Origin: Desulfotomaculaceae bacterium
GTDB lineage: Bacteria > Bacillota > Desulfotomaculia > Desulfotomaculales > Pelotomaculaceae
NCBI GenBank assembly: GCA_028709235.1
Contig: JAQVXL010000002.1
Coordinates: 9,633 to 73,632 of the forward strand
Direction of reading: 5' to 3'
Length of the DNA: 64,000 nucleotides
Every line of letters begins with the position of its first letter. The first letter of the stretch is position 1. Position numbers and translations under genes: made by a program. This document shows, in pieces, positions 3,405 to 53,007 of this stretch. Below the pieces are notes generated by a model. That model was not told the origin of the DNA. It made no database searches and worked only from the letters and a program-made list of their open reading frames with translations.

Positions 3405-4424
3405 TTACATTAGCAAATGCCCAAACACATTGAATGTATATCCAATGATAATAATGCCTAAAGTTACAACTGAAAAGAAGATGGCCAGAAGCTTTATTTT
3501 AACCGCCGTTTTAAGCATGATTAACGAAGGAAGGGAAAGTGCGGTCACCGCCATCATGAAGGAAAGCGCAGTGCCTAAACCTACCCCCTTATAAACTAAT
3601 GCTTCGGCTATAGGCAAGGTGCCAAAGATATCCGCATACATCGGGACCCCGACAATAGTGGCAACAAGTACTGAATACCACTTATCCTGCCCCAGCACCG
3701 CAGATATGACATTTTCAGGTATCCAGTTATGAATAGCAGCGCCTATCCCGACACCAATCAAGATATATAGCCATACCCTTTTGACAATATTCAGCACCTG
3801 TTCTTTGGAATAATCAAGGCGGTCCCGTACGGTCAGCTCATTTTGATCTATATCAATCATGGCATTGCTGTAAACAAAAGACTCTACATGATTTTCAAGT
3901 TTAGCATTGCCGATGATGGTCCCTCCGATCACCGCAAGAATAAGCCCGACTACAACATAGGCGAAGGCTATCTTCCAGTTAAAGATGCTGGCAATAAGGA
4001 GTATAGACGCCAGATCTACCAGCGGAGATGAAATTAAAAATGAGAATGTAATCCCCAATGGCAGGCCGGCACTGGTAAATCCAATAAACAACGGTATCGA
4101 CGAGCAGGAGCAGAAGGGAGTTATAGTGCCCAGCAAAGCCCCTAATATGTTTCCTGTTATTCCCTTGTATCCACCTAATATTTTTTTCGTTCGCTCAGGG
4201 GGGAAGAAGCTTTGGATATAGGATATTGTAAAAATAAGCACAGAAAGCAATATAAATATTTTCACCACATCATATATGAAAAAATGAATACTGCCGCCCA
4301 GTCTATCCTGGATACTAAGCCCCAAAGCCTGCTCTACAAACTTTTGCACCAGATCGTACAGCCATTGCATCTTGAGCAATTGATTGTTAAGCCATTCAAA
4401 TATAAACACGTACAGCCACCTCAA
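3405..4424 (-). CDS. DUF318/ArsP-family permease
   Basis: Multi-pass membrane protein with TPFCSCSSIP, FLISSPLVD and GVPMYAD motifs; downstream of arsR. Confidence 0.85.
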   Translation of the reverse strand: MRWLYVFIFEWLNNQLLKMQWLYDLVQKFVEQALGLSIQDRLGGSIHFFIYDVVKIFILLSVLIFTISYIQSFFPPERTKKILGGYKGITGNILGALLGTITPFCSCSSIPLFIGFTSAGLPLGITFSFLISSPLVDLASILLIASIFNWKIAFAYVVVGLILAVIGGTIIGNAKLENHVESFVYSNAMIDIDQNELTVRDRLDYSKEQVLNIVKRVWLYILIGVGIGAAIHNWIPENVISAVLGQDKWYSVLVATIVGVPMYADIFGTLPIAEALVYKGVGLGTALSFMMAVTALSLPSLIMLKTAVKIKLLAIFFSVVTLGIIIIGYTFNVFGHLLM

Positions 4425-12796: not shown

Positions 12797-13660
12797 TTGA
12801 CTGTTATCGACTTTCATGTTCACCTGACCGAAATGGAGACACTTACACCAAATATTTTTGAATTATTATCAGGCGCTTACCCGGCCAGAAAAGATTTTGA
12901 GGCATTTTGCATAGAATACAGCAATCCTCATCACTATTTACGGTTAATGGATCAGTCGGAAGTAGATTATGCTGTTGTTGTAGCAGGCAGCAAGACTATG
13001 CCCACCAGTACCGCCATGAATGAACTAGTAGAAGATTTTTGCCGGGTAAGCCCGAGATTAATACCATTTTGCACGCTGAATCCTTACCGCCATCCCAAAA
13101 TAGGCCAAAAATTAGAGGATTTATGTTTAAATCATGGCTTCAAGGGACTGAAGCTTTATCCCCCCTACAATCATTTTTACCCCAATGACCAGCTGCTGTA
13201 TCCTTTGTACGCGGTTGCCGAAAGGCTGGGCCTGCCTGTGCACTTCCATACCGGGTCATCGATATTTGCCAACAACCGGATCAAATATGGGAATCCCATC
13301 TATTTTGATGATGTGGCTGTAGACTTCCCGGACATGAAAATCATCATGGCCCACGGGGGACGCGGACCATGGTATGACGAAGCAATGAGCATGGTCCGCC
13401 TGCACAAGAATGTTTATATCGACATTGCCGGCCTGCCCCCGGTAAAGATTTTAGAAATTTTCCCCGACATGGAGCGGTTCGCCCATAAGTTTATTTTTGG
13501 CACTGACTGGCCTACTCCCGTTTTTAATTTGGTTAATAGAAAGGCTGCTGTAATTGATGTTAAAAAGAACATTAAAACAATCAAGAACTTAAACATTTCC
13601 CAGGCGGCAATTGCCAAAATACTGGGTGAAAACGCCCAGCGACTCCTGGGATTACTCTGA
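12797..13660 (+). CDS. Amidohydrolase_2-family metal-dependent hydrolase/decarboxylase
   Basis: IDFHVH, GFKGLKLYPP, PVHFHTG, IIMAHGG and FIFGTDWP motifs. Confidence 0.9.
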   Translation: MTVIDFHVHLTEMETLTPNIFELLSGAYPARKDFEAFCIEYSNPHHYLRLMDQSEVDYAVVVAGSKTMPTSTAMNELVEDFCRVSPRLIPFCTLNPYRHPKIGQKLEDLCLNHGFKGLKLYPPYNHFYPNDQLLYPLYAVAERLGLPVHFHTGSSIFANNRIKYGNPIYFDDVAVDFPDMKIIMAHGGRGPWYDEAMSMVRLHKNVYIDIAGLPPVKILEIFPDMERFAHKFIFGTDWPTPVFNLVNRKAAVIDVKKNIKTIKNLNISQAAIAKILGENAQRLLGLL

Positions 13661-13768
13661 GGCTTTCAGGCGCACTGCAGCTTACAATACAACGCAGTGG
13701 ACATAAAATGACAGCCCCGGCGAGGTCTGGCCTGCAGGGGCTGTCAACAATGACAATACTATGCTTTA

Positions 13769-13876
13769 TTAAAACAGATTCTTAATCAAGGCGCTTAATC
13801 CGAGTACTACTGCCAGCAGTATATAAATAAACACTCATGGCGGACAGTTTTTATACCAGGGCTTCTTTGTCTCCAT
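13769..13876 (-). CDS. Candidate 35-aa membrane micro-selenoprotein (CPPU motif), not in the ORF track
   Basis: GGGGAGG RBS, ATG 13876; METKKPWYKNCPP-TGA(13837-13835)-VFIYILLAVVLGLSALIKNLF-TAA; hairpin UACUG-CUGG-CAGUA 13 nt after the UGA; directly downstream of prxU. Confidence 0.55.
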
Positions 13877-13973
13877 CTAAATCCCTCCCCTGTGCTGCCA
13901 CCTGGGAACTCTGGTACTTCCCCATGCTGCCAGGCCAACGCTGGCTGAGCTTATTTACTTTCCTGCTTTTTTT

Positions 13974-14687
13974 TTAATCTTCGAAAGCCTGCTCCACCTT
14001 CCAGGCCTTCCAAACGTTACCAACCAGGTCTGTACCGGGCTTCAGGGTCTGCTTGCCCGGCTTCCAGCCGGAAGGAGTAACCTCGGCGCCGCCTGTAGCC
14101 CTGACTAATTGGAAGGCTTGCAGTTGACGCAGTGACTCACTGACATTACGTCCCACCGGCGGGGTCAGGACTTCAAACCCCTGGATAATCCCATCCGGAT
14201 CAATGATGAATCTGCCCCGGGTCTCCACGCCGCTGTCTTCATCATATATGCCATAGGCCCTGCCGATGCTTCCATCCTGGTCGGAACACATCATGAACGG
14301 GATATCATGTCCAATCATCTTGGACAGTTCAATGTCATTCCACACCTTGTGTACGAAAACACTGTCAACACTTACAGACAGCACCTCCGCGCCCAACTTC
14401 TGGAATTCAGGATATTTCGCAGCAACTGCTGCAACTTCTGTTGCTCAAACGAAGGTAAAATCCCCCGGGTAGAAACATAATATTACCCATTTCCCCTTCA
14501 GTTCGGATAATCCAATATTCTTGAATTTACCCTGATGAAAAGCCCGGGTTGTAAAGTTGGGGGCTGGTTTTCCCACTCTGATCATAGACTTTTTGGCCTC
14601 CTTTACTGGTTCAGTTGAAATGTCTGTCTCAACATTCATTTTCTGAATTGGCGGTCTCTGACATCCTGGTTTAGATTCCTCCGGCAT
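13974..14687 (-). CDS. prxU: Selenocysteine-containing peroxiredoxin (AhpC/TSA), 237 aa via UGA readthrough
   Basis: Track ORFs 14445..14687 and 13974..14396 are in one frame: CFYPGDFTFV-TGA-ATEVAAVAAKYPEF, with TGA at the peroxidatic Cys position; also RGRFIIDPDGIIQ and GRNVSESLRQ. Confidence 0.92.
14419..14444 (-). promoter_or_regulatory. Putative bacterial SECIS of prxU
   Basis: 12 nt after UGA: GCAGC-AGUU-GCUGC hairpin with G in the apical loop. Confidence 0.55.
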
Positions 14688-14808
14688 CTACTCACCTTCC
14701 TTTTCTGAAAACATTCGAACCGACATCCATAAATTATTGTTATGATTTGTAATTATATCATAACTTACCTTTATGGGAAATAATTTACTAGTTTAGAATA
14801 ACAAATGT

Positions 14809-15807
14809 TTACCGGTCCCAGCTCTCTCTCAATACCGGGGCGGCGTCTTCCGGCGCCATTGGGTTAATGTACACTCCTGTGGCCACCTCCACCCCGGCAG
14901 CCACGAGCAGCCTGGGGGTAAATTCCATATACCAGTGGTAGCCCGGCTCGTAAGGGGAGTTAACCGGCGCCGTATTGATTGCAAAATTATAGGAAGGATT
15001 GTCCAGGGCATGAACTATAGCCATGCTGAGTTTTTTGCAGAACCAGGCCAGTTCCTTTTCTTCCGCTTCTGTCAGCTGGCCAAAATGTTCTGTATGGCGT
15101 TTAGGCACAATCCAAGTCTCATAGGCAAATCGTGAGGCGTAGGGACACAGGGCTGTAAAATATTTACCCGCATAGACAATCCGTTCCCTGCTTTCCTGTT
15201 CTTGCTGCAAGATATCACAGATCAGACACCGGCCCTGAGCTTGATAATATTGGGGCAGGCCGTCATTCTCTCCGGGTTTGAAAGGAAAACCGAGAATCTG
15301 GCTATGGCCGTGCCCCAGGGAAGCGCCGGCAAACAAACCGCGGTTTTTATAGATCTGGATATATTTGATGCGCTCATCTTCAGCCAGCGCATTGTAACGT
15401 AACTTAAAAGTGGCAACAATCATTTCTATCTGTTCCAGATCTAATTCATGAAAACCAGTATCATGCTGCGGTGTTTCAATTATCACTTCATGTTTCCCCA
15501 GACCGTTGCAAAAGCGGTAGAGCCCCATCTGTTTTTCCTCTAATTCCCCGTCCAATGCAAAGGCAGAGAACTTGTTGGGGATAGTACGGACCAGCCAACC
15601 CCTGCCGTCCGGGCCCTCCTTGCTCTTTCTAAAAGCTAAAATTTCAGGCGGGGTAGCAGCTTCATTTCCTTCACAGAACGGACAGAACCCGGCCGGGGCG
15701 CTGGCAGTTTCCACTTTCATAACAGGAAAATCCTTCGGCTTTAAAGTCAAATTAGATGATATTGATACCCACTTATTCTTAACATTATCTTTTCTTATTT
15801 CTGACAT
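14809..15807 (-). CDS. galT: Galactose-1-phosphate uridylyltransferase
   Basis: CPFCEGNE, VRTIPNKFSA, GKHEVIIETPQH, GASLGHGHSQI (HxHxQ) and YHWYMEFTPRL. Confidence 0.9.
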   Translation of the reverse strand: MSEIRKDNVKNKWVSISSNLTLKPKDFPVMKVETASAPAGFCPFCEGNEAATPPEILAFRKSKEGPDGRGWLVRTIPNKFSAFALDGELEEKQMGLYRFCNGLGKHEVIIETPQHDTGFHELDLEQIEMIVATFKLRYNALAEDERIKYIQIYKNRGLFAGASLGHGHSQILGFPFKPGENDGLPQYYQAQGRCLICDILQQEQESRERIVYAGKYFTALCPYASRFAYETWIVPKRHTEHFGQLTEAEEKELAWFCKKLSMAIVHALDNPSYNFAINTAPVNSPYEPGYHWYMEFTPRLLVAAGVEVATGVYINPMAPEDAAPVLRESWDR

Positions 15808-15975
15808 TATAATACCTCCTGGTTCAGTTTTGATAAATATCAACATATTTATTGCTGTAAATATGTACTATATGCAATAATAGAAACAGATTTTATTAAA
15901 AAAAGAAGCTTCTGAGCTCTATTTTCGCATATACTGATAACCGGGTATATTTTTATTTTGTAAAGGTAATTTTAG

Positions 15976-36719: not shown

Positions 36720-38450
36720 GTGGAGGCGTTTATAAGAACCCTACTGGAATGCTCTGTTGCTATGGCGGTAATATCCTTAATCTATATGTATGCTGCGCCT
36801 CGCTTATCTAAACGGTATAGCGCTAAATGGCTATATTATGCTTGGCTGATGATTGGGGCAGGTTGGATATTTCCCTTTCGCTTCCGGATTGAGCTGCCGT
36901 TTTTCCAGGTGCAGGACGTGAATATACCTGCAACACCCGTGCAATTTCTCCCGCCTGCCGGCGATACGCTCCCATCCCCCATTACAACAGCCGGTGATGT
37001 TGTGAACGCTCCGGCAGCGATGACCTTATGGTGGCTGCTTGCGGCCATTTGGATTTTAGGTGTTATCAGCGTCGTAGTTTATCATATCTTGCGGCACAGG
37101 CGCTTTATTAAGATGGTGAACCGGTGGAGTGAACCTGTGACCGACTTGAAAAGTTTGGGGATTTTAAACGCCTTGAAGTCTCAACTGGGAATTAAGAAGC
37201 AGCCAGGGTTAAGCGTGTGCCAGAGCATCACAAGCCCCATGCTCGTTGGCTTTTTCCGGCCTACTATTTTGTTGCCGCTTCACAAAAATGAAGGCAATGA
37301 ATTATCCCTTATTCTAAAACATGAGCTAATTCATTTCCAACGGCATGACCTTTGGCATAAGGCGCTAATTTTGGCGGCAACCGTGCTCCATTGGTTTAAC
37401 CCCGTAGTCTACATCATGGCAAAAGCGACTGCGTTACAATGTGAAATATCCTGTGACGCGCTGGTTTTACAGGGCGCAGATTTCCAAAAGCGCAAACAAT
37501 ACGGCGAAACTATTATTGGTGTTGTCAGGAACGGGGCGAAGTTCCGCACAGCATTATCAACTAATTTTTATGGAGGGAAAAAAGGCATGGAGAATCGTAT
37601 TTCTTCAATCATGGACACAAAACGAAAGAAAACTGGCGTTATAATCCTTTGTGCAGTACTTGCCAGCATTATAATAACCGGAGGAGTGGCGCTGAGTGCA
37701 CCTACATCTGACAAGCAGGACAAACAGGATGTATTATCGCTTGTGGAAAACTTTGGTGATATGCTGAAAATGGTTACACTCACAGCGCCCCAAGACATTG
37801 TAGCGAAGAGTATAGAAGAACATTATTCGGGATATGTCACGCCGGAGCTTTTGGCTATGTGGCAATCCGATCCGCTGAGCGCGCCAGGCCGGACTCTTTC
37901 AAGCCCCTGGCCGGACCGGATTGAAATCACGGACATCACGTTTGGTGATGGAGAATATACCGTTTCCGGAGCCATTATTGAAGTCACAAGCACCGAACTG
38001 CAAAACGGTGGAGCCGCTGCAAAATATCCGGTTACGCTGCTGATAATAAAGCAGGACGACCGATGGCTTATATCCAATGTAACTCTCGGCTCACCTGTTG
38101 TTGCTGGGCCTCCCGACGCGGATGCCAATACTGAAGGCATCTCCTATACACAGGAAGAAATCGATGCAGCAATGAAGGCGGCGGAAACCTATTTTCAGGA
38201 GATAGCCACAAGTCGAACTATGGAACGAATATGGTTTGACAAAGAAGCATGCACCAAAATGCGCTCCTCTTATATGCAATATGGAAACGGAAGTATCAAC
38301 GGCGTTAAGGAGGAAAATGTGATTGTTCTTCTTTGCGATTTTGAAATAAAAGACTACTCTTCCTTTGAAGGAAAATATCCAAGCTGGAATTTAATCTTTA
38401 TTAGAGAAAATGGAGAAAGTTCGTGGGTATTGGACGATCAGGGATATTAA
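36720..38450 (+). CDS. BlaR1-like M56 metallopeptidase sensor with non-PBP extracellular domains
   Basis: SPMLVGFFRPTILLP, LKHELIH (HExxH), LHWFNP and CEISCD; the C-terminus lacks the SxxK penicillin-binding motif. Confidence 0.88.
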   Translation: MEAFIRTLLECSVAMAVISLIYMYAAPRLSKRYSAKWLYYAWLMIGAGWIFPFRFRIELPFFQVQDVNIPATPVQFLPPAGDTLPSPITTAGDVVNAPAAMTLWWLLAAIWILGVISVVVYHILRHRRFIKMVNRWSEPVTDLKSLGILNALKSQLGIKKQPGLSVCQSITSPMLVGFFRPTILLPLHKNEGNELSLILKHELIHFQRHDLWHKALILAATVLHWFNPVVYIMAKATALQCEISCDALVLQGADFQKRKQYGETIIGVVRNGAKFRTALSTNFYGGKKGMENRISSIMDTKRKKTGVIILCAVLASIIITGGVALSAPTSDKQDKQDVLSLVENFGDMLKMVTLTAPQDIVAKSIEEHYSGYVTPELLAMWQSDPLSAPGRTLSSPWPDRIEITDITFGDGEYTVSGAIIEVTSTELQNGGAAAKYPVTLLIIKQDDRWLISNVTLGSPVVAGPPDADANTEGISYTQEEIDAAMKAAETYFQEIATSRTMERIWFDKEACTKMRSSYMQYGNGSINGVKEENVIVLLCDFEIKDYSSFEGKYPSWNLIFIRENGESSWVLDDQGY

Positions 38451-47158: not shown

Positions 47159-49081
47159 TTAGGCGGTGGCGCCTGCAAACTGGCTGTTGTAGAGTTCGGC
47201 GTAAAAGCCGCCCTGGGCCAGCAGCCCGTCGTGGCTGCCCTGCTCGATGATGGCCCCGTCGTTCATCACCAGGATCAGGCCGGCATCGCGGATTGTGGAG
47301 AGCCTGTGGGCGATCACAAAACTGGTCCGGCCTTTCATCAGGTTCGTCATCGCCTGCTTGATCAATATCTCGGTCCTGGTGTCGATGCTGCTGGTGGCCT
47401 CGTCCAGGATCAGGACAGCCGGGTCAGCCAGGATGGCCCGGGCTATGGTCAGCAGCTGCTTCTGGCCCTGGGATATATTGGAGGCCTCCTCGTTCAGAAC
47501 GGTGTCATAGCCGTCCGGCAGCGTCTTGATGAAGTGGTCGGCGTTGGCCGCTTTAGACGCCCTGATGATCTCCTCCTCGGTGGCTCCTTCCCGGCCGTAA
47601 GCAATGTTTTCCCTGATGGCGCCGTTGAACAGCCAGGTATCCTGCAGCACCATACCGAACATGGTGCGCAGGTCACCCCGCTTCATGTCCCTGATATCCA
47701 CGCCGTCGACGGTAATACAGCCGCCCTGCACCTCGTAGAAGCGCATAATCAGGTTGACCAGGGTGGTCTTGCCCGCTCCGGTGGGCCCGACAATGGCGAT
47801 GGTGCTTCCTTCTTGCACGTCTATGCTCAGGTCTTTCATCAGAAGTTCATCCTCTTTGTAGCCAAATTTCACATGCTCGAATTTGATCCGGCCCCGGGGG
47901 AACCTGATTACCCGGGCATTTTCCCTGTCCGGGATCTCCTCCTCCTCGTCCAGGATTTCGAATACCCGCTCCGCGGAGGCTGCCGTGGACTGCAGCACAT
48001 TGGCTATGTTGGCCACCTGGATAATCGGGTGAGTGAACGACCTGGTGTACTGAATGAAAGCCTGGATATCACCAATTTCTATTTTCTTTTGCGCCACCAG
48101 CAGGCCGCCTACGACACAGGTAAAGACATATCCCACATTACTGATAAAGTTTAAGGCCGGGAAAATAATGCCGGACATAAACTGCGCTTTCCAGCCCGCT
48201 TGATACAGCCTGTCGTTGATCTCCCTGAACTTTTCAATAGAATCCTCCTCGCGGCCGAATACCTTGACGATTTTATGCCCGGCATACATCTCCTCCACAT
48301 GGCCGTTGATCTCCCCGACGTATTTCTGCTGTTCCGCGAAATACTTCTGGGAACGCCTGGTGATCCGCAGGGTAATCAGCAAGCTGGCGGGCAGCGTAAA
48401 CATAGCAATCAATGTCAACAGGGGGCTGATGCTCAGCATCATGATCAAAATGCCGATCACAGTCACAAAAGACGTGATCAGCTGGGTCAGGCTCTGCTGC
48501 AGCGTTGTGGCAATATTGTCCATGTCGTTGGTCACCCGGCTCAGGATCTCGCCGTAGCTGCGCTGGTCGAAGTATTTGAGCGGCAGGCGGTCAAGTTTAT
48601 CCTTGACATCGTTACGCATCCTGTAAACAGTGTTCTGGGACACGCTGGACATGATATAGCCCATGATAAAACTGAACAGGGAACTGATTAAATATAGCGC
48701 CGCCAGCAGCAGCAGGATCTTGCCCACATATTCAAAATCAAACCCCGGAATGGGCTGTCTTTGCAGTTCATCGATCACTGCAGCAGGCATATTTTCCTGG
48801 ATTGCGGTGTGCAGCTGGGTATAATAGCTATACCTGGCCAGCACCCCTTCAGCTAGTTTGGTCGTGGCCATGCCCATGATTTTAGGGCCGACAATCGAAA
48901 AAACGGTGCTGGCGATGGCCAGGAAAAACACCGCTATAAAGCTGTACTTCTCCGTCTTCAGGTAGTCTGTCAGCCTTTTTATGGTCCCCTTGAAGTTCCT
49001 CGCTTTTTCTACCGGCATCCTGCTGCCGTGCCGGCCACCCCGTCCCGGGCGGACGGGCTGTTGAGTTCTCTGTTCACTCAT
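47159..49081 (-). CDS. ABC exporter, fused permease/ATPase (second subunit)
   Basis: GPTGAGKT, ISQGQKQ and LILDEATSS; likely start MSEQRTQQ at 49081. Confidence 0.92.
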   Translation of the reverse strand: MSEQRTQQPVRPGRGGRHGSRMPVEKARNFKGTIKRLTDYLKTEKYSFIAVFFLAIASTVFSIVGPKIMGMATTKLAEGVLARYSYYTQLHTAIQENMPAAVIDELQRQPIPGFDFEYVGKILLLLAALYLISSLFSFIMGYIMSSVSQNTVYRMRNDVKDKLDRLPLKYFDQRSYGEILSRVTNDMDNIATTLQQSLTQLITSFVTVIGILIMMLSISPLLTLIAMFTLPASLLITLRITRRSQKYFAEQQKYVGEINGHVEEMYAGHKIVKVFGREEDSIEKFREINDRLYQAGWKAQFMSGIIFPALNFISNVGYVFTCVVGGLLVAQKKIEIGDIQAFIQYTRSFTHPIIQVANIANVLQSTAASAERVFEILDEEEEIPDRENARVIRFPRGRIKFEHVKFGYKEDELLMKDLSIDVQEGSTIAIVGPTGAGKTTLVNLIMRFYEVQGGCITVDGVDIRDMKRGDLRTMFGMVLQDTWLFNGAIRENIAYGREGATEEEIIRASKAANADHFIKTLPDGYDTVLNEEASNISQGQKQLLTIARAILADPAVLILDEATSSIDTRTEILIKQAMTNLMKGRTSFVIAHRLSTIRDAGLILVMNDGAIIEQGSHDGLLAQGGFYAELYNSQFAGATA

Positions 49082-49085
49082 ACGC

Positions 49086-50813
49086 TCACGCAATCTCCTC
49101 TTCCGACAACTGGGAGGAAACAATTTCACGGTAAACCCGGCATGATTCCAGCAGTTCCCTGTGCCTGCCCATACCTGCCACCCGGCCTTCTTCCAGTACG
49201 ATAATCCTGTCCGCATCCATAACCGTCCCCACCCGCTGGGCTACAATAATCACGGTGGAAGCAGCGGTCTCATTCCTGAGCGCGGCCCGCAGCCGGGCGT
49301 CAGTCTTATAGTCGAGGGCTGAAAAACTGTCGTCCAGGATATATATCCCGGGCTGGCGCACCAGGGCCCGGGCGATGGAAAGCCGCTGCTTCTGACCCCC
49401 GGACAAATTTGTCCCGCCCTGGGAGATCATCGATTCATATCCATCCTTCATCCCGGCAATGAATTCACCCGCCTGGGCGATTTCCGCCGCGTGGGCCACT
49501 TCCTGATCAGTCGCCTCAGCCTTGCCGTAACGGATGTTTTCTGAGATAGTCCCGCTGAAAAGGACAGGCTGCTGGGGCACGAACCCAATCCTGGCCCTGA
49601 GCTCTTTCTGTTTGATCTGCCGCACATCCACGCCGTCCACCAGGACTGAGCCGCCGCTGACGTCGTAAAAGCGGGGAATCAGGTTGACCAGGGTGGACTT
49701 GCCCGCGCCTGTACCGCCGATAATGGCGGTCACCTCGCCGGGGGAGGCGGTAAAAGACACATTGCTGACTGCGGGCAGCTCGGCGCCGGGATAGCTGAAA
49801 TTGACGTCCTGAAACTGGACAACACCTGTCCGGCCGCCGGTTTTAATAGTCTGGGGCGGGTCGACAATACCGGGCTCTATATCCAGCACTTCATTGATCC
49901 GGATTGCTGAAGCCTGCGCTCTCGGCAGCATCACAAACATGATCGTAACCATGACGATGGAGAACATCACCATCATCGCGTACTGGATAAAAGCCATCAT
50001 GTCGCCCACCTGCATCATGTCCTGGCTGATGCGGTGGCCGCCAAACCAGATGATGGCGACAGTGGTTAAATTCATGATCAGCATCATCAGCGGATGCATC
50101 ACCGCCATTATTTTGTTCACTCTGATGGCGTTGTCGGCCAGATCCCGGTTGGCCGCTTTAAAACGTTTATTCTCCCTGTCCAGCCTGTTGAAAGCCCGGA
50201 TCACCCTGATGCCGGTAAGGTTCTCGCGCAGGACCAGGTTGACCTGATCAAGCTTGACCTGCATGGCTTTAAACAGGGGTACGACAACCGTGGCCAGCCT
50301 GCCGATCAGGAACATCATCAGCGGCAGCGCCACAACCAGCAGCAAAGTAAGCTGTTTGTCCTTGGAATAGGCCATGATGATGCCACCCACGCTCATTATC
50401 GGCGCGTATACGATAAAGCGCAGGCCCATGATGACCAGGTTCTGCACCTGGATAATGTCGTTGGTGGTCCTGGTGATCAGGGAAGCAGTACCGATCTTGT
50501 CGAATTCATGTAGGGAGTAGCTCTCTATGCGTGAAAAAACCCTGTCGCGGACATCCCTGCCGAAGCTCATACCGATAATTGAAGAGAGGAAACTGGCGAT
50601 AATTGAACATATACTGATCACCAGAACTACTACCAGCATGTAGCTGCCGTATTTCCAGATGTAGCCGGTATCGCCCTTCATCATGCCGTTGTTGACGATT
50701 TCCGCCATCAGCGTGGGGAGAAACAGGTCCGCAATGGACTGGCCAAAAAGAACCAGTATGGCCACGACCAAGTACCAGCGATAGGGCCTTAAATGCAAGA
50801 ATAACTTTACCAT
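49086..50813 (-). CDS. ABC exporter, fused permease/ATPase (degenerate-site subunit of a heterodimer)
   Basis: GGTGAGKS, LSGGQKQR and ILDDSFS (non-canonical Walker B). Confidence 0.92.
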   Translation of the reverse strand: MVKLFLHLRPYRWYLVVAILVLFGQSIADLFLPTLMAEIVNNGMMKGDTGYIWKYGSYMLVVVLVISICSIIASFLSSIIGMSFGRDVRDRVFSRIESYSLHEFDKIGTASLITRTTNDIIQVQNLVIMGLRFIVYAPIMSVGGIIMAYSKDKQLTLLLVVALPLMMFLIGRLATVVVPLFKAMQVKLDQVNLVLRENLTGIRVIRAFNRLDRENKRFKAANRDLADNAIRVNKIMAVMHPLMMLIMNLTTVAIIWFGGHRISQDMMQVGDMMAFIQYAMMVMFSIVMVTIMFVMLPRAQASAIRINEVLDIEPGIVDPPQTIKTGGRTGVVQFQDVNFSYPGAELPAVSNVSFTASPGEVTAIIGGTGAGKSTLVNLIPRFYDVSGGSVLVDGVDVRQIKQKELRARIGFVPQQPVLFSGTISENIRYGKAEATDQEVAHAAEIAQAGEFIAGMKDGYESMISQGGTNLSGGQKQRLSIARALVRQPGIYILDDSFSALDYKTDARLRAALRNETAASTVIIVAQRVGTVMDADRIIVLEEGRVAGMGRHRELLESCRVYREIVSSQLSEEEIA

Positions 50814-51447: not shown

Positions 51448-53007
51448 TTAGTGCGATTCAACCATTTGCTTGAGTTTCCCCCACTGTGGCTCAAATATTT
51501 CCTGGGGCATTTCTTTTAAATTGGGAGAAATCCTGGGTCTGAAATCCATAATGGCCAGAATGTCTTTTTCCAAGTCGAGACCGGGCGCAATTTCGATCAG
51601 GGTTACCTCGCCGTCTTCCAGGGCGAAGACAGCGCGCTCGGTGACATAGAGTATTTTCTGTTTGTTTTTCTGGGAGTTCTTACCGCTGAAGGTAACCTGG
51701 GTAACTTTTTGCACAAATTTTTTAATATTGCCCTCTTTCACAATATGGATCCGGCCGTCCTTGACCTCGTATTCCGCACCGGCGGTCATGGTACCGACAA
51801 AAACCACTTTCTTGGCGGTCGATGAGATATTGACATAGCCACCCGGCCCTACAACTTTGGTGCCAAACTTACTGACATTTGTGTTGCCTTCCTGGTCAAC
51901 CTGGGCAGTTCCTAAAAAACATATGTCAAGCCCGCCGCCGTCATAAAAGTCAAACATGCTCGGGTGCTCAATCGTACATTCAGAGTTCCACGTGGACGGG
52001 AAATCAGGCCCTTTGGCCGGCATGCCGCCAAAGTTACCTAACTCTGTGGTGAGCGTCATCATGTCGATTACGCCTTCCTCCGCAGCAACACTGGCAACCC
52101 CGTCAGGCATACCAATACCCATGTTGACCACAGCTCCCGGCCGCAATTCCATAGCCGCCCTGCGGCCGATAATCTTGCGCTCGTCCAGAGGAAGGGGAGG
52201 TACGCTGTCCAGGGGTGTCCTGTTATCGCCGCAAAGGGCAGGATTGAGGTAGGTGACCTTCGTTTGCAGGTGATTTTCCGGTTTGCCGACAACGATGTAA
52301 TCCACCAGGACTCCCGGCACTTTTACAGTCTTGGGATGAAGCGTGCCGGGTTTGCTCACGTACTGTACCTGCGCAATCACAATACCGCCGTTGTTTTTTA
52401 CCGCAGTGGCCAATTGCAGCGCTTCCAGGAACAAACACTCTTTATCCATCGTGAAATTGCCGTTTTCGTCGCAGCTGGTGCCGCGAATAACGGCAACATC
52501 AATGGGGAAAGTTTTGTAGTACAAATACTCGTCCCCTTCGAACTCAATCACTTTCACCATATCGTCCTTGGTGATATCGTTTACCTTGCCGCCCTCCAGA
52601 CGTGGGTCGGCGTATGTGCCCAATCCCACTTTGGTGATCACGCCAACTTTTTTCCCCGCCATTTGCCGCCATAAATGGGTCATGACTCCCTGGGGGAACA
52701 GGTGACACTCAATTTTATTGTCAAGAACCAGTTTACCGTATTTGGGCGACTCGCCTATATGCCCCCCAATGTGCTTTCTAACCATGCCCTCATGAGCAAA
52801 ATGGTTGAAACCCCTTTCCTTATGGTCGCCGCAGCCGCAGCTGTGGGTGATAAATAGGTCTCTTGGATGCCCGGTGGCAAGAAAGCGCTTCTGCAGGGCA
52901 ATCGCCACTTCTTCGGCAAAGCCGCACAGACCTGCCGTGGTCCATGCTACACAGTCACCGTCCTTAATCGCCTCTACTGCTTGCTCCGGAGTAACAACTT
53001 TTGACAT
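51448..53007 (-). CDS. Family I acyl-CoA:acetate CoA-transferase (propionate CoA-transferase-like)
   Basis: PQGVMTHL, VGLGTYADPR, AVIRGT, VVNMGIGMP, LTTELG (catalytic Glu), GPGGYVNIS and YVTERAVF. Confidence 0.9.
   Translation of the reverse strand: MSKVVTPEQAVEAIKDGDCVAWTTAGLCGFAEEVAIALQKRFLATGHPRDLFITHSCGCGDHKERGFNHFAHEGMVRKHIGGHIGESPKYGKLVLDNKIECHLFPQGVMTHLWRQMAGKKVGVITKVGLGTYADPRLEGGKVNDITKDDMVKVIEFEGDEYLYYKTFPIDVAVIRGTSCDENGNFTMDKECLFLEALQLATAVKNNGGIVIAQVQYVSKPGTLHPKTVKVPGVLVDYIVVGKPENHLQTKVTYLNPALCGDNRTPLDSVPPLPLDERKIIGRRAAMELRPGAVVNMGIGMPDGVASVAAEEGVIDMMTLTTELGNFGGMPAKGPDFPSTWNSECTIEHPSMFDFYDGGGLDICFLGTAQVDQEGNTNVSKFGTKVVGPGGYVNISSTAKKVVFVGTMTAGAEYEVKDGRIHIVKEGNIKKFVQKVTQVTFSGKNSQKNKQKILYVTERAVFALEDGEVTLIEIAPGLDLEKDILAIMDFRPRISPNLKEMPQEIFEPQWGKLKQMVESH

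Follow-up and report, generated by a model that had tools for sequence, protein, structure and literature searches.

We studied a short open reading frame (ORF), termed the micro-ORF in the following, that lies directly behind the selenocysteine (Sec) peroxiredoxin gene prxU in a 64-kb stretch of DNA from a Desulfotomaculaceae bacterium (the whole stretch of 64,000 nucleotides (nt) is referred to as the window). An earlier note had proposed that this micro-ORF encodes a hidden membrane micro-selenoprotein with a CxxU motif, and our comparison with homologues argues for a conserved gene whose internal TGA is best read as Sec. The layout is present as the note described it, i.e., a strong ribosome binding site and an ATG open an ORF on the minus strand that runs across an internal TGA to a TAA. 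Its distance to prxU, which lies on the same strand, is exactly 97 nt, in agreement with the 97 bp given before, and an in-frame TAG is found upstream of the Shine-Dalgarno (SD) sequence. Respective coordinates are provided in Table 1.

The motif stands directly N-terminal to one predicted hydrophobic helix, as translation and hydropathy support. ORF calling was expected to overlook such a gene, and this is the case: the ORF list of the window contains only the 21-aa piece after the TGA (with a GTG start), and no relatives were found in the protein collection searched. Plain ORF calling also splits prxU itself such that only a 140-aa C-terminal piece is listed.

Table 1. Features of the window around the micro-ORF and prxU, followed by further genes.
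Feature	Position	Strand	Basis or remark
Micro-ORF, proposed micro-selenoprotein gene	13769-13876	minus	35 codons + stop: METKKPWYKNCPP-U(TGA)-VFIYILLAVVLGLSALIKNLF-TAA
SD sequence GGGGAGGG, GGGGAGG(G)	13883-13890	minus	6 nt 5' of the ATG
ATG start of the micro-ORF	13876-13874	minus	
Cys11 codon TGT of the C-P-P-U motif	13844-13846	minus	TGT/TGC among homologues, residue invariant
In-frame TGA, proposed Sec14 codon	13835-13837	minus	TGA in 9/9 distinct homologues
Post-Sec segment, 21 residues with a 17-residue hydrophobic core, predicted single transmembrane (TM) helix	13772-13834	minus	Kyte-Doolittle hydropathy, conservation
Hairpin UACUGCU-GGC-AGUAGUA resembling a Sec insertion sequence (SECIS), 7-bp stem	13805-13821	minus	RNAalifold, pair counts, single folds
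TAA stop of the micro-ORF	13771-13769	minus	
Intrinsic-terminator-like hairpin GACAGCCCC...GGGGCUGUC followed by AUUUUAU, 9-bp GC-rich stem	13703-13745	minus	fold
prxU, Sec-peroxiredoxin	13974-14687	minus	NCBIfam NF040737 peroxi_PrxU, 385 bits; AhpC-TSA domain
Sec TGA of prxU in FTFV*ATE (peroxidatic site)	14447-14445	minus	
SECIS hairpin of prxU, GCAGC-AGUU-GCUGC	14419-14432	minus	fold
Sigma-70-like promoter match TTCCCA-16-TGnTATAAT (10/12), probable start of a prxU/micro-ORF transcript	14752-14779	minus	consensus match only
GalT/HIT-like protein, upstream of prxU	14809-15846	minus	
Amidohydrolase, convergent with the micro-ORF	12797-13660	plus	
ArsP-type permease	3405-4424	minus	
BlaR1-like M56 peptidase	36720-38450	plus	
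Two tandem ABC exporter genes	47159-50813	minus	
CoA transferase	51448-53007	minus	

Homologues and the reading frame across the TGA

Homologues were sought in two data sets. For the genome set, the 80 closest prxU loci were taken from genomes at species level and scanned for C-x-x-(stop or Cys) with a hydrophobic run behind it. Metagenome contigs were scanned with a degenerate DNA pattern of PWYKxCPP followed by TGA, TGC or TGT, for which TAA and TAG are undetectable.

Within the genome set, the same micro-ORF is found directly behind prxU in three loci (L001, L002 and L004; metagenome-assembled genomes of Pelotomaculum/Desulfotomaculaceae), with the TGA, the downstream frame and the stop position kept. 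The metagenome pattern matches 15 loci, 11 of which are true homologues that all carry TGA and an in-frame hydrophobic tail. The remaining 4 loci (TGC or TGT) were considered as Cys forms and rejected, since they lack the hydrophobic tail and are thus chance matches. Including the window, the family comprises 9 distinct sequences that represent at least 5 lineages, with a GC content of 36-51% and differing neighbour genes. An ATG preceded by a purine-rich SD-like run, the PWYKxCPP motif, the in-frame TGA, a hydrophobic tail of 21-24 codons and a TAA or TAG stop are shared by 9/9 sequences. The products have a length of 35-37 residues, and Tyr+4, Leu+6, Leu+7, Gly+12 and Leu+16 of the tail are invariant.

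Further searches did not extend this set. An nhmmer scan of all 95 loci with the family profile found no additional copies, a scan of viral contigs with TRR at the Sec site gave no matches, and tblastn against plasmids returned a chance Streptomyces match only. A sequencing-run look-up for three family members found metagenomes and no cultured isolate. The nearest k-mer matches of the window are landfill, compost and sludge metagenomes. Judged by the alignments, the micro-ORF is a member of a previously unannotated micro-protein family in anaerobic Firmicutes.

With regard to the Sec codon, either a conserved TGA or an alternation between TGA (Sec) and TGC (Cys) had been expected for a selenoprotein. 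The former is what we observe, i.e., every true homologue has TGA (9/9 distinct sequences, given that the metagenome pattern admits TGA, TGC and TGT only), and the alternation is not seen. TGG, which the note had named as the mark of a simple nonsense mutation, occurs in no homologue found.

We also compared the sequence on both sides of the TGA. The 9 sequences align from PWYK to the end without any indel, with the stop 21-24 codons past the TGA. The pooled pairwise ratio of nonsynonymous to synonymous changes (pN/pS) is 0.20 in the 9 codons before the TGA and 0.50 in the 21 codons after it; the respective values for the two shifted frames are 3.9-8.5 and 1.2-2.0. Synonymous changes are plentiful on both sides, e.g., Pro CCC/CCT/CCA, Cys TGT/TGC, Gly+12 GGA/GGG/GGC/GGT and Leu TTG/TTA. 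That is, the frame after the TGA is conserved under in-frame purifying selection, the lack of which would have spoken against the proposal according to the note. Strain variants agree with this picture: in 8 metagenome runs, whose contigs were chosen by k-mers across prxU and not by the Sec codon, many substitutions are found in the micro-ORF and none in the TGA.

These data bear on the reading of the TGA as a plain stop, by which only the 13-residue METKKPWYKNCPP would be made or, after re-initiation, a 13-aa soluble and a 21-aa hydrophobic peptide. In 6/9 sequences, the TGA is directly followed by GTG or ATG, a possible start (ATG, GTG or TTG) lies at most 2 codons from the TGA in every sequence, and the ORF list does contain the 21-aa GTG ORF. 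However, a hydrophobic stretch will contain Val, Met and Leu codons by chance anyway, two lineages have ATT and GTA at this position, and an SD sequence 5' of the post-TGA codon is absent in 9/9 sequences. The missing SD and the variable codon make separate initiation of a second ORF unlikely. Furthermore, a plain stop leaves the zero-indel, same-frame junction and the invariant CPP before the TGA unexplained, and it has to account for a SECIS-like hairpin with frozen synonymous sites at canonical distance (see below). It also meets a clear difference in stop usage: the terminal stop is TAA or TAG in 9/9 sequences, while the internal codon is TGA in 9/9, including 4 that were found without constraint on the Sec codon. 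The lack of any Cys form can be counted in favour of a plain stop, bearing in mind that the metagenome matches were ascertained with TGA, TGC or TGT only. Taken together, we regard a plain stop as quite unlikely.

The hairpin and the decoding of the TGA

RNAalifold predicts one hairpin in 9/9 sequences, namely CUGC(U)-GNN-(N)GCAG, with core pairs that are invariant or show G-U exchanges only. The loop has the form (U)G[G/U]N(N) and starts 19-20 nt past the UGA; the core can be written as CUGC/G(C/U)AG with a loop (U)GGC(A), which gives the 7-bp stem of Table 1 in the window. Two outer pairs are formed in most sequences, with one exchange of C-G for A-U. The hairpin proposed before (UACUG-CUGG-CAGUA, 13 nt past the UGA) exists at that distance, but its register is not conserved, since in the register favoured by the homologues the 3' arm is displaced by 3 nt. 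The similar geometry proposed for the prxU hairpin GCAGC-AGUU-GCUGC, 12 nt past its own UGA, is borne out by its fold, which is of the same size and type.

The stem is built from the codons of Leu+6 and Leu+7, the third base of codon +9 and the base that opens codon +10. CTG encodes Leu+6 in 9/9 sequences and Leu+7 in 8/9 (the single TTG still pairs), and codon +9 is GCA in 8/9. The loop codon, on the other hand, is free to vary (GCA, GCG, TTA, TTT), and so are the codons of other conserved Leu and Gly residues. Since CTG makes up only 9-12% of the Leu codons in the AT-rich family loci (36% GC), the choice of stem codons is not explained by codon usage. Thus, the gene is conserved, its frame is kept across the TGA, and the hairpin is under constraint at the RNA level.

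The published bacterial SECIS (bSECIS) model demands a loop of 3-9 nt, a stem of at least 4 bp and a spacing of 16-37 nt (PMC13188914, Fig. 2 legend) as well as a G in the first two loop positions followed by G or U (PMC13188914). The hairpin of the micro-ORF fits this model. A simple bSECIS filter is passed by 7/9 homologues compared to 8.5% of all TGA triplets of the window, and the minimum free energy of the hairpin is -7.5 kcal/mol or lower in 8/9 sequences. A scan of the window at Rfam gathering thresholds gave no matches, which is uninformative, no bacterial SECIS family having been seen reported.

The capacity to decode UGA as Sec can be assessed via prxU. In all 80 closest prxU relatives, the peroxidatic residue is encoded by TGA and never by a Cys codon. 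As this includes all Pelotomaculum-type loci with the micro-ORF, the clade appears to decode UGA as Sec. Other TGA-interrupted genes were sought in the window and the metagenome loci, and only prxU was found. A reassigned genetic code was considered and rejected, since the TGA of prxU aligns with the catalytic Cys/Sec site.

Read-through could also be independent of Sec, i.e., a near-cognate tRNA would insert Trp or Cys at a leaky UGA and the product would not be a selenoprotein. Frame conservation shows read-through and not the inserted residue, and the hairpin is weak and lacks covariation, both of which leave room for such a mechanism. Yet active Sec decoding is indicated 97 nt upstream in prxU, the loop (G, then G or U) and the spacing match the SelB-binding consensus, and the TGA takes the second redox position of C-x-x-U, the commonest selenoprotein context. 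In addition, fixation of TGG, TGC or TGT, the less costly route to Trp or Cys if either were needed, is seen in no orthologue. We thus hold a leaky UGA to be very improbable.

Several observations weigh against Sec insertion at the TGA. No Cys form was found in a collection of 5.8 billion proteins, using both the padded peptide with Cys and a padded profile of 8 sequences, although Cys forms exist in nearly all selenoprotein families (source quoted with PMC13188914), which makes the family atypical. This is weak negative evidence, since the sensitivity of the search is low for ORFs of 35 residues. The metagenome pattern is blind to TAA or TAG at the Sec codon of an orthologue. The hairpin is small (consensus energy -4.3 kcal/mol), L081 and L082 fail the simple bSECIS filter, and there is almost no compensatory covariation, with shuffled sequences often reaching the observed scores; the covariation test is uninformative here, because the stem hardly varies and the sequences are few. 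None of selA, selB, selC and selD is among the scanned ORFs of the window, where ARAGORN finds no tRNA gene and hence no tRNA-Sec, and the fetched DNA of L081, L082, L084 and L090/L094 is too short to judge Sec capacity. Metatranscriptome contigs of relatives cover prxU and reach position 13895, i.e., they end just before the ORF. Finally, a sludge-metagenome contig of run X13 (depth 5) has a 1-nt insertion at 13798/13799 that shifts the frame of the tail; near-identical contigs of runs X7 and X9 lack this insertion, which reflects either an error in assembly or the decay of this copy.

Balancing these points against the conserved frame, the invariant TGA and the constrained hairpin, we consider it probable that the micro-ORF encodes a genuine Sec-containing micro-protein.

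Transcription unit and gene neighbourhood

The promoter match lies 5' of prxU and the terminator-like hairpin only 3' of the micro-ORF (Table 1), which makes co-transcription likely; a terminator-like site on the minus strand between the two genes was sought and not found. The terminator-like hairpin is conserved in the DNA alignment with L001, L002 and L004. The spacer between prxU and the micro-ORF varies among these loci in both length and sequence. From this we infer that the micro-ORF is likely co-transcribed with prxU in the window and its Pelotomaculum/Desulfotomaculaceae relatives. A short, perfect inverted repeat (TGTCA-TTGT-TGACA, 13746-13759, minus strand) is located 3' of the stop and 5' of the terminator stem; L001 and L004 share it with the window, and L002 differs at one base.

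The expectation of a conserved prxU synteny did not hold. The micro-ORF is present in only 3/80 of the closest prxU loci, whereas the other 77 have no micro-ORF within 4 kb. Among the latter is L003, whose PrxU is 89% identical and where the similarity is lost just before the SD sequence. That is, the micro-ORF is present or absent even among near relatives. L003 (4700-4900) shares the spacer behind prxU with L004 (compare 13877-13973 of the window). Conversely, 4/5 lineages with the micro-ORF have no prxU nearby, i.e., it is absent from the fetched DNA of L081, L082, L084 and L090/L094.

Outside the clade, an HD-GYP gene lies 5' of the micro-ORF in two lineages, a zinc-ribbon gene 5' in one, and an aminotransferase gene 3' in another. 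The two HD-GYP genes (PF13487), each with the micro-ORF directly 3', encode a HAMP-HD_5 protein (L082:2924-3754, minus strand) and a PAS-GAF-PAS-GGDEF-HD_5 protein (L084:2496-5762, minus strand). This adjacency in two unrelated lineages may be a coincidence or a second recurrent neighbourhood. L084 also carries a molybdopterin oxidoreductase gene (L084:2-1834, plus strand) about 0.6 kb off on the opposite strand, the N-terminal part of which lies beyond the end of the locus. In formate dehydrogenase, Sec is located in the N-terminal part of the enzyme.

Proposed function and comparison with known systems

The head of the predicted product is rich in Lys (net charge +1 to +4) and contains the invariant P-W-Y-K-x-C-P-P-U. 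It is followed in all homologues by 17 residues with a mean Kyte-Doolittle hydropathy of 1.9-3.0, while the last 4-6 tail residues have a net charge of 0 to +3. We propose that the ribosome would start at the SD-preceded ATG and that, at codon 14, SelB with Sec-tRNA(Sec) would act on the hairpin 13-30 nt downstream such that Sec is inserted at the UGA instead of termination. Translation of 21 further codons up to the TAA would then yield a selenoprotein of 35 residues, which places the Cys-x-x-Sec pair at the first turn of the single TM helix and thus presumably at the membrane surface.

There, the pair would form a membrane-anchored selenol/thiol redox centre that cycles between the selenolate/thiol and the selenenylsulfide state, with peroxides or disulfides near the membrane as putative substrates. 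Such a cycle at the membrane surface is, by analogy, the most likely function. CxxU and CxxC centres sit at helix N-termini in thioredoxin-fold proteins, which is the basis of the analogy. Within one clade, the adjacency to prxU points to a role in peroxide defence. Two observations speak against so specific a function: the charge bias leaves the membrane topology ambiguous, and the synteny with prxU is confined to the Pelotomaculum/Desulfotomaculaceae clade.

A more far-reaching version of the redox cycle takes the family as Sec-only, i.e., without Cys forms, and the bare C-P-P-U centre on its anchor as a minimal membrane-surface peroxidase or redox relay. It could, e.g., reduce lipid hydroperoxides or pass electrons between thioredoxin or PrxU and membrane targets. 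In functional terms only, it would then be the bacterial counterpart of membrane-directed GPx4 or SELENOK. We offer this as a tentative idea of rather low probability.

Metal binding by Cys-Pro-Pro-Sec is a serious alternative, even if we rate it as doubtful. In this case, the motif would be a soft-metal or metalloid site at the membrane (Hg, Cu, Cd, As) and the protein an accessory subunit for metal handling. In P1B-ATPases and Mer transport proteins, metals are bound by Cys-Pro-x motifs that lie in or near membrane helices. The table of a 2026 review assigns several recently described selenoproteins of clostridia to organometallic or mercury chemistry, and the small residues Ala+9 and Gly+12 suggest packing of the helix on a partner. 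The ArsP permease gene is found within the window, but 9 kb distant. No metal transporter, mer, cop or ars gene adjoins the micro-ORF in any of the five contexts, and a peroxiredoxin is the only recurrent functional neighbour.

The earlier note favoured a selenol/thiol partner dedicated to PrxU that could serve as its reductant or as its membrane tether. The two genes are indeed adjacent and probably co-transcribed in the window, L001/L088, L002 and L004/L083. Beyond this one clade, neither conserved synteny nor co-occurrence supports the idea, as is evident from the 77/80 closest prxU loci (incl. L003) without the micro-ORF and from the four other lineages that carry it without prxU nearby. 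Moreover, PrxU is named thioredoxin-dependent by NCBIfam. A dedicated PrxU partner is therefore unlikely in our view.

Least credible of all is a hydrophobic peptide akin to type I toxins that is throttled by the UGA and an antisense RNA: size and hydrophobic helix are alike, and a weak promoter-like site (13681-13709) plus a hairpin with T-rich tail (13933-13946) on the plus strand could delimit an antisense RNA, but the SD sequence is strong, the invariant PWYKxCPP head and the UGA are foreign to known type I toxins, and the idea was rejected because the plus-strand sites are not conserved in L001, L002 and L004 and occur at chance level (3 found vs. 1.7 expected). A regulatory leader peptide was likewise rejected, since a terminator and not a gene follows the micro-ORF.

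Returning to the redox centre at the membrane, we compared the predicted protein with databases and known systems. Pfam gave no match (E-value (E) at most 0.01) for the peptide when its Sec was entered as C or X, and the sole NCBIfam match with E up to 10 is EssA (E = 0.12, 12 bits), an artefact of the hydrophobic helix. A membrane micro-selenoprotein is absent from the table of prokaryotic selenoprotein families of the 2026 review and is not mentioned in the deep-Sep paper and the BSepDB paper (111 families). A full-text search for CPPU in the selenocysteine literature yielded an unrelated plant paper only. The protein thus appears to be undescribed, as had been suspected, with nothing alike in Pfam, NCBIfam, the 5.8-billion-protein collection and recent selenoproteome reviews. 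Current pipelines need Cys homologues, known families or minimum ORF lengths, for which reason the family is invisible to them. To our knowledge, no bacterial selenoprotein would be smaller than the product of 35-37 residues predicted here, and we know of no other that would be a membrane-anchored micro-protein.

If the reading as Sec is true, the selenoproteomes of anaerobes are under-counted among micro-ORFs. The family would also provide a minimal natural system, i.e., a head of 39 nt, a UGA and a 17-nt hairpin within the coding region of a membrane helix. Such a system would be of use to study the requirements of SelB and SECIS, the chemistry of an isolated CxxU at the membrane, and the joint constraint of RNA and protein on shared codons.

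Known bacterial CxxU selenoproteins (SelW-like/Rdx with Cys10-x-x-Sec13, GrdA, AhpD-like) resemble the family in several respects: the UGA takes the second redox position of C-x-x-U near the N-terminus, an intragenic hairpin with a G[G/U] loop lies 16-37 nt downstream, and a helix begins at the motif. In contrast, the micro-protein has no globular or thioredoxin-like fold (with only 35 residues, the latter is not possible), its Sec would be followed by a membrane-anchor helix, and no Cys homologues were found. Membership in SelW-like/Rdx (PF10262) was rejected, since there is no Pfam match and the likeness is limited to the motif and its place near the N-terminus. With PrxU (NF040737), the family has in common the probable transcription unit (within the clade), Sec as the presumed reactive residue and the SECIS type, i.e., a stem of 5-7 bp with G second in the loop, 12-13 nt past the UGA. 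PrxU differs in being a soluble AhpC/TSA enzyme of 237 residues with TxxU, and the sequences are unrelated.

Selenobacteriocin TIGR04081, UXX-star, KCU-star and the CC/Se motif NF041239, all listed in the 2026 review, are similar in that they have a short product or terminal Sec, occur mainly in anaerobes and were found by comparative genomics. They carry Sec beside the C-terminus or in a precursor and not before a membrane helix, and membership was rejected as NCBIfam gives no match to them with E up to 10.

Small membrane proteins without Sec are a further point of reference. CydX, AcrZ, KdpF and MgtS are small membrane accessory subunits of bacteria, and they are alike in length (30-50 residues), in having one helix with small residues on one face, and in being missed by ORF callers. 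We know of none among these four with Sec or a CxxC/CxxU motif, and the family, unlike them, has no conserved adjoining partner gene.

Eukaryotic SELENOK and SELENOS (94-189 residues) have an N-terminal helix, Sec near the C-terminus and the SECIS in the 3' untranslated region. The micro-protein resembles them in small size, a single TM helix and a Sec within a short unstructured segment on one side of the membrane, but there is no sequence similarity and the order is reversed, with Sec first and the helix last. In summary of these comparisons, the decoding mechanism would be the standard bacterial one, and what appears to be new is the family itself, with the size of its members and their membrane anchor.

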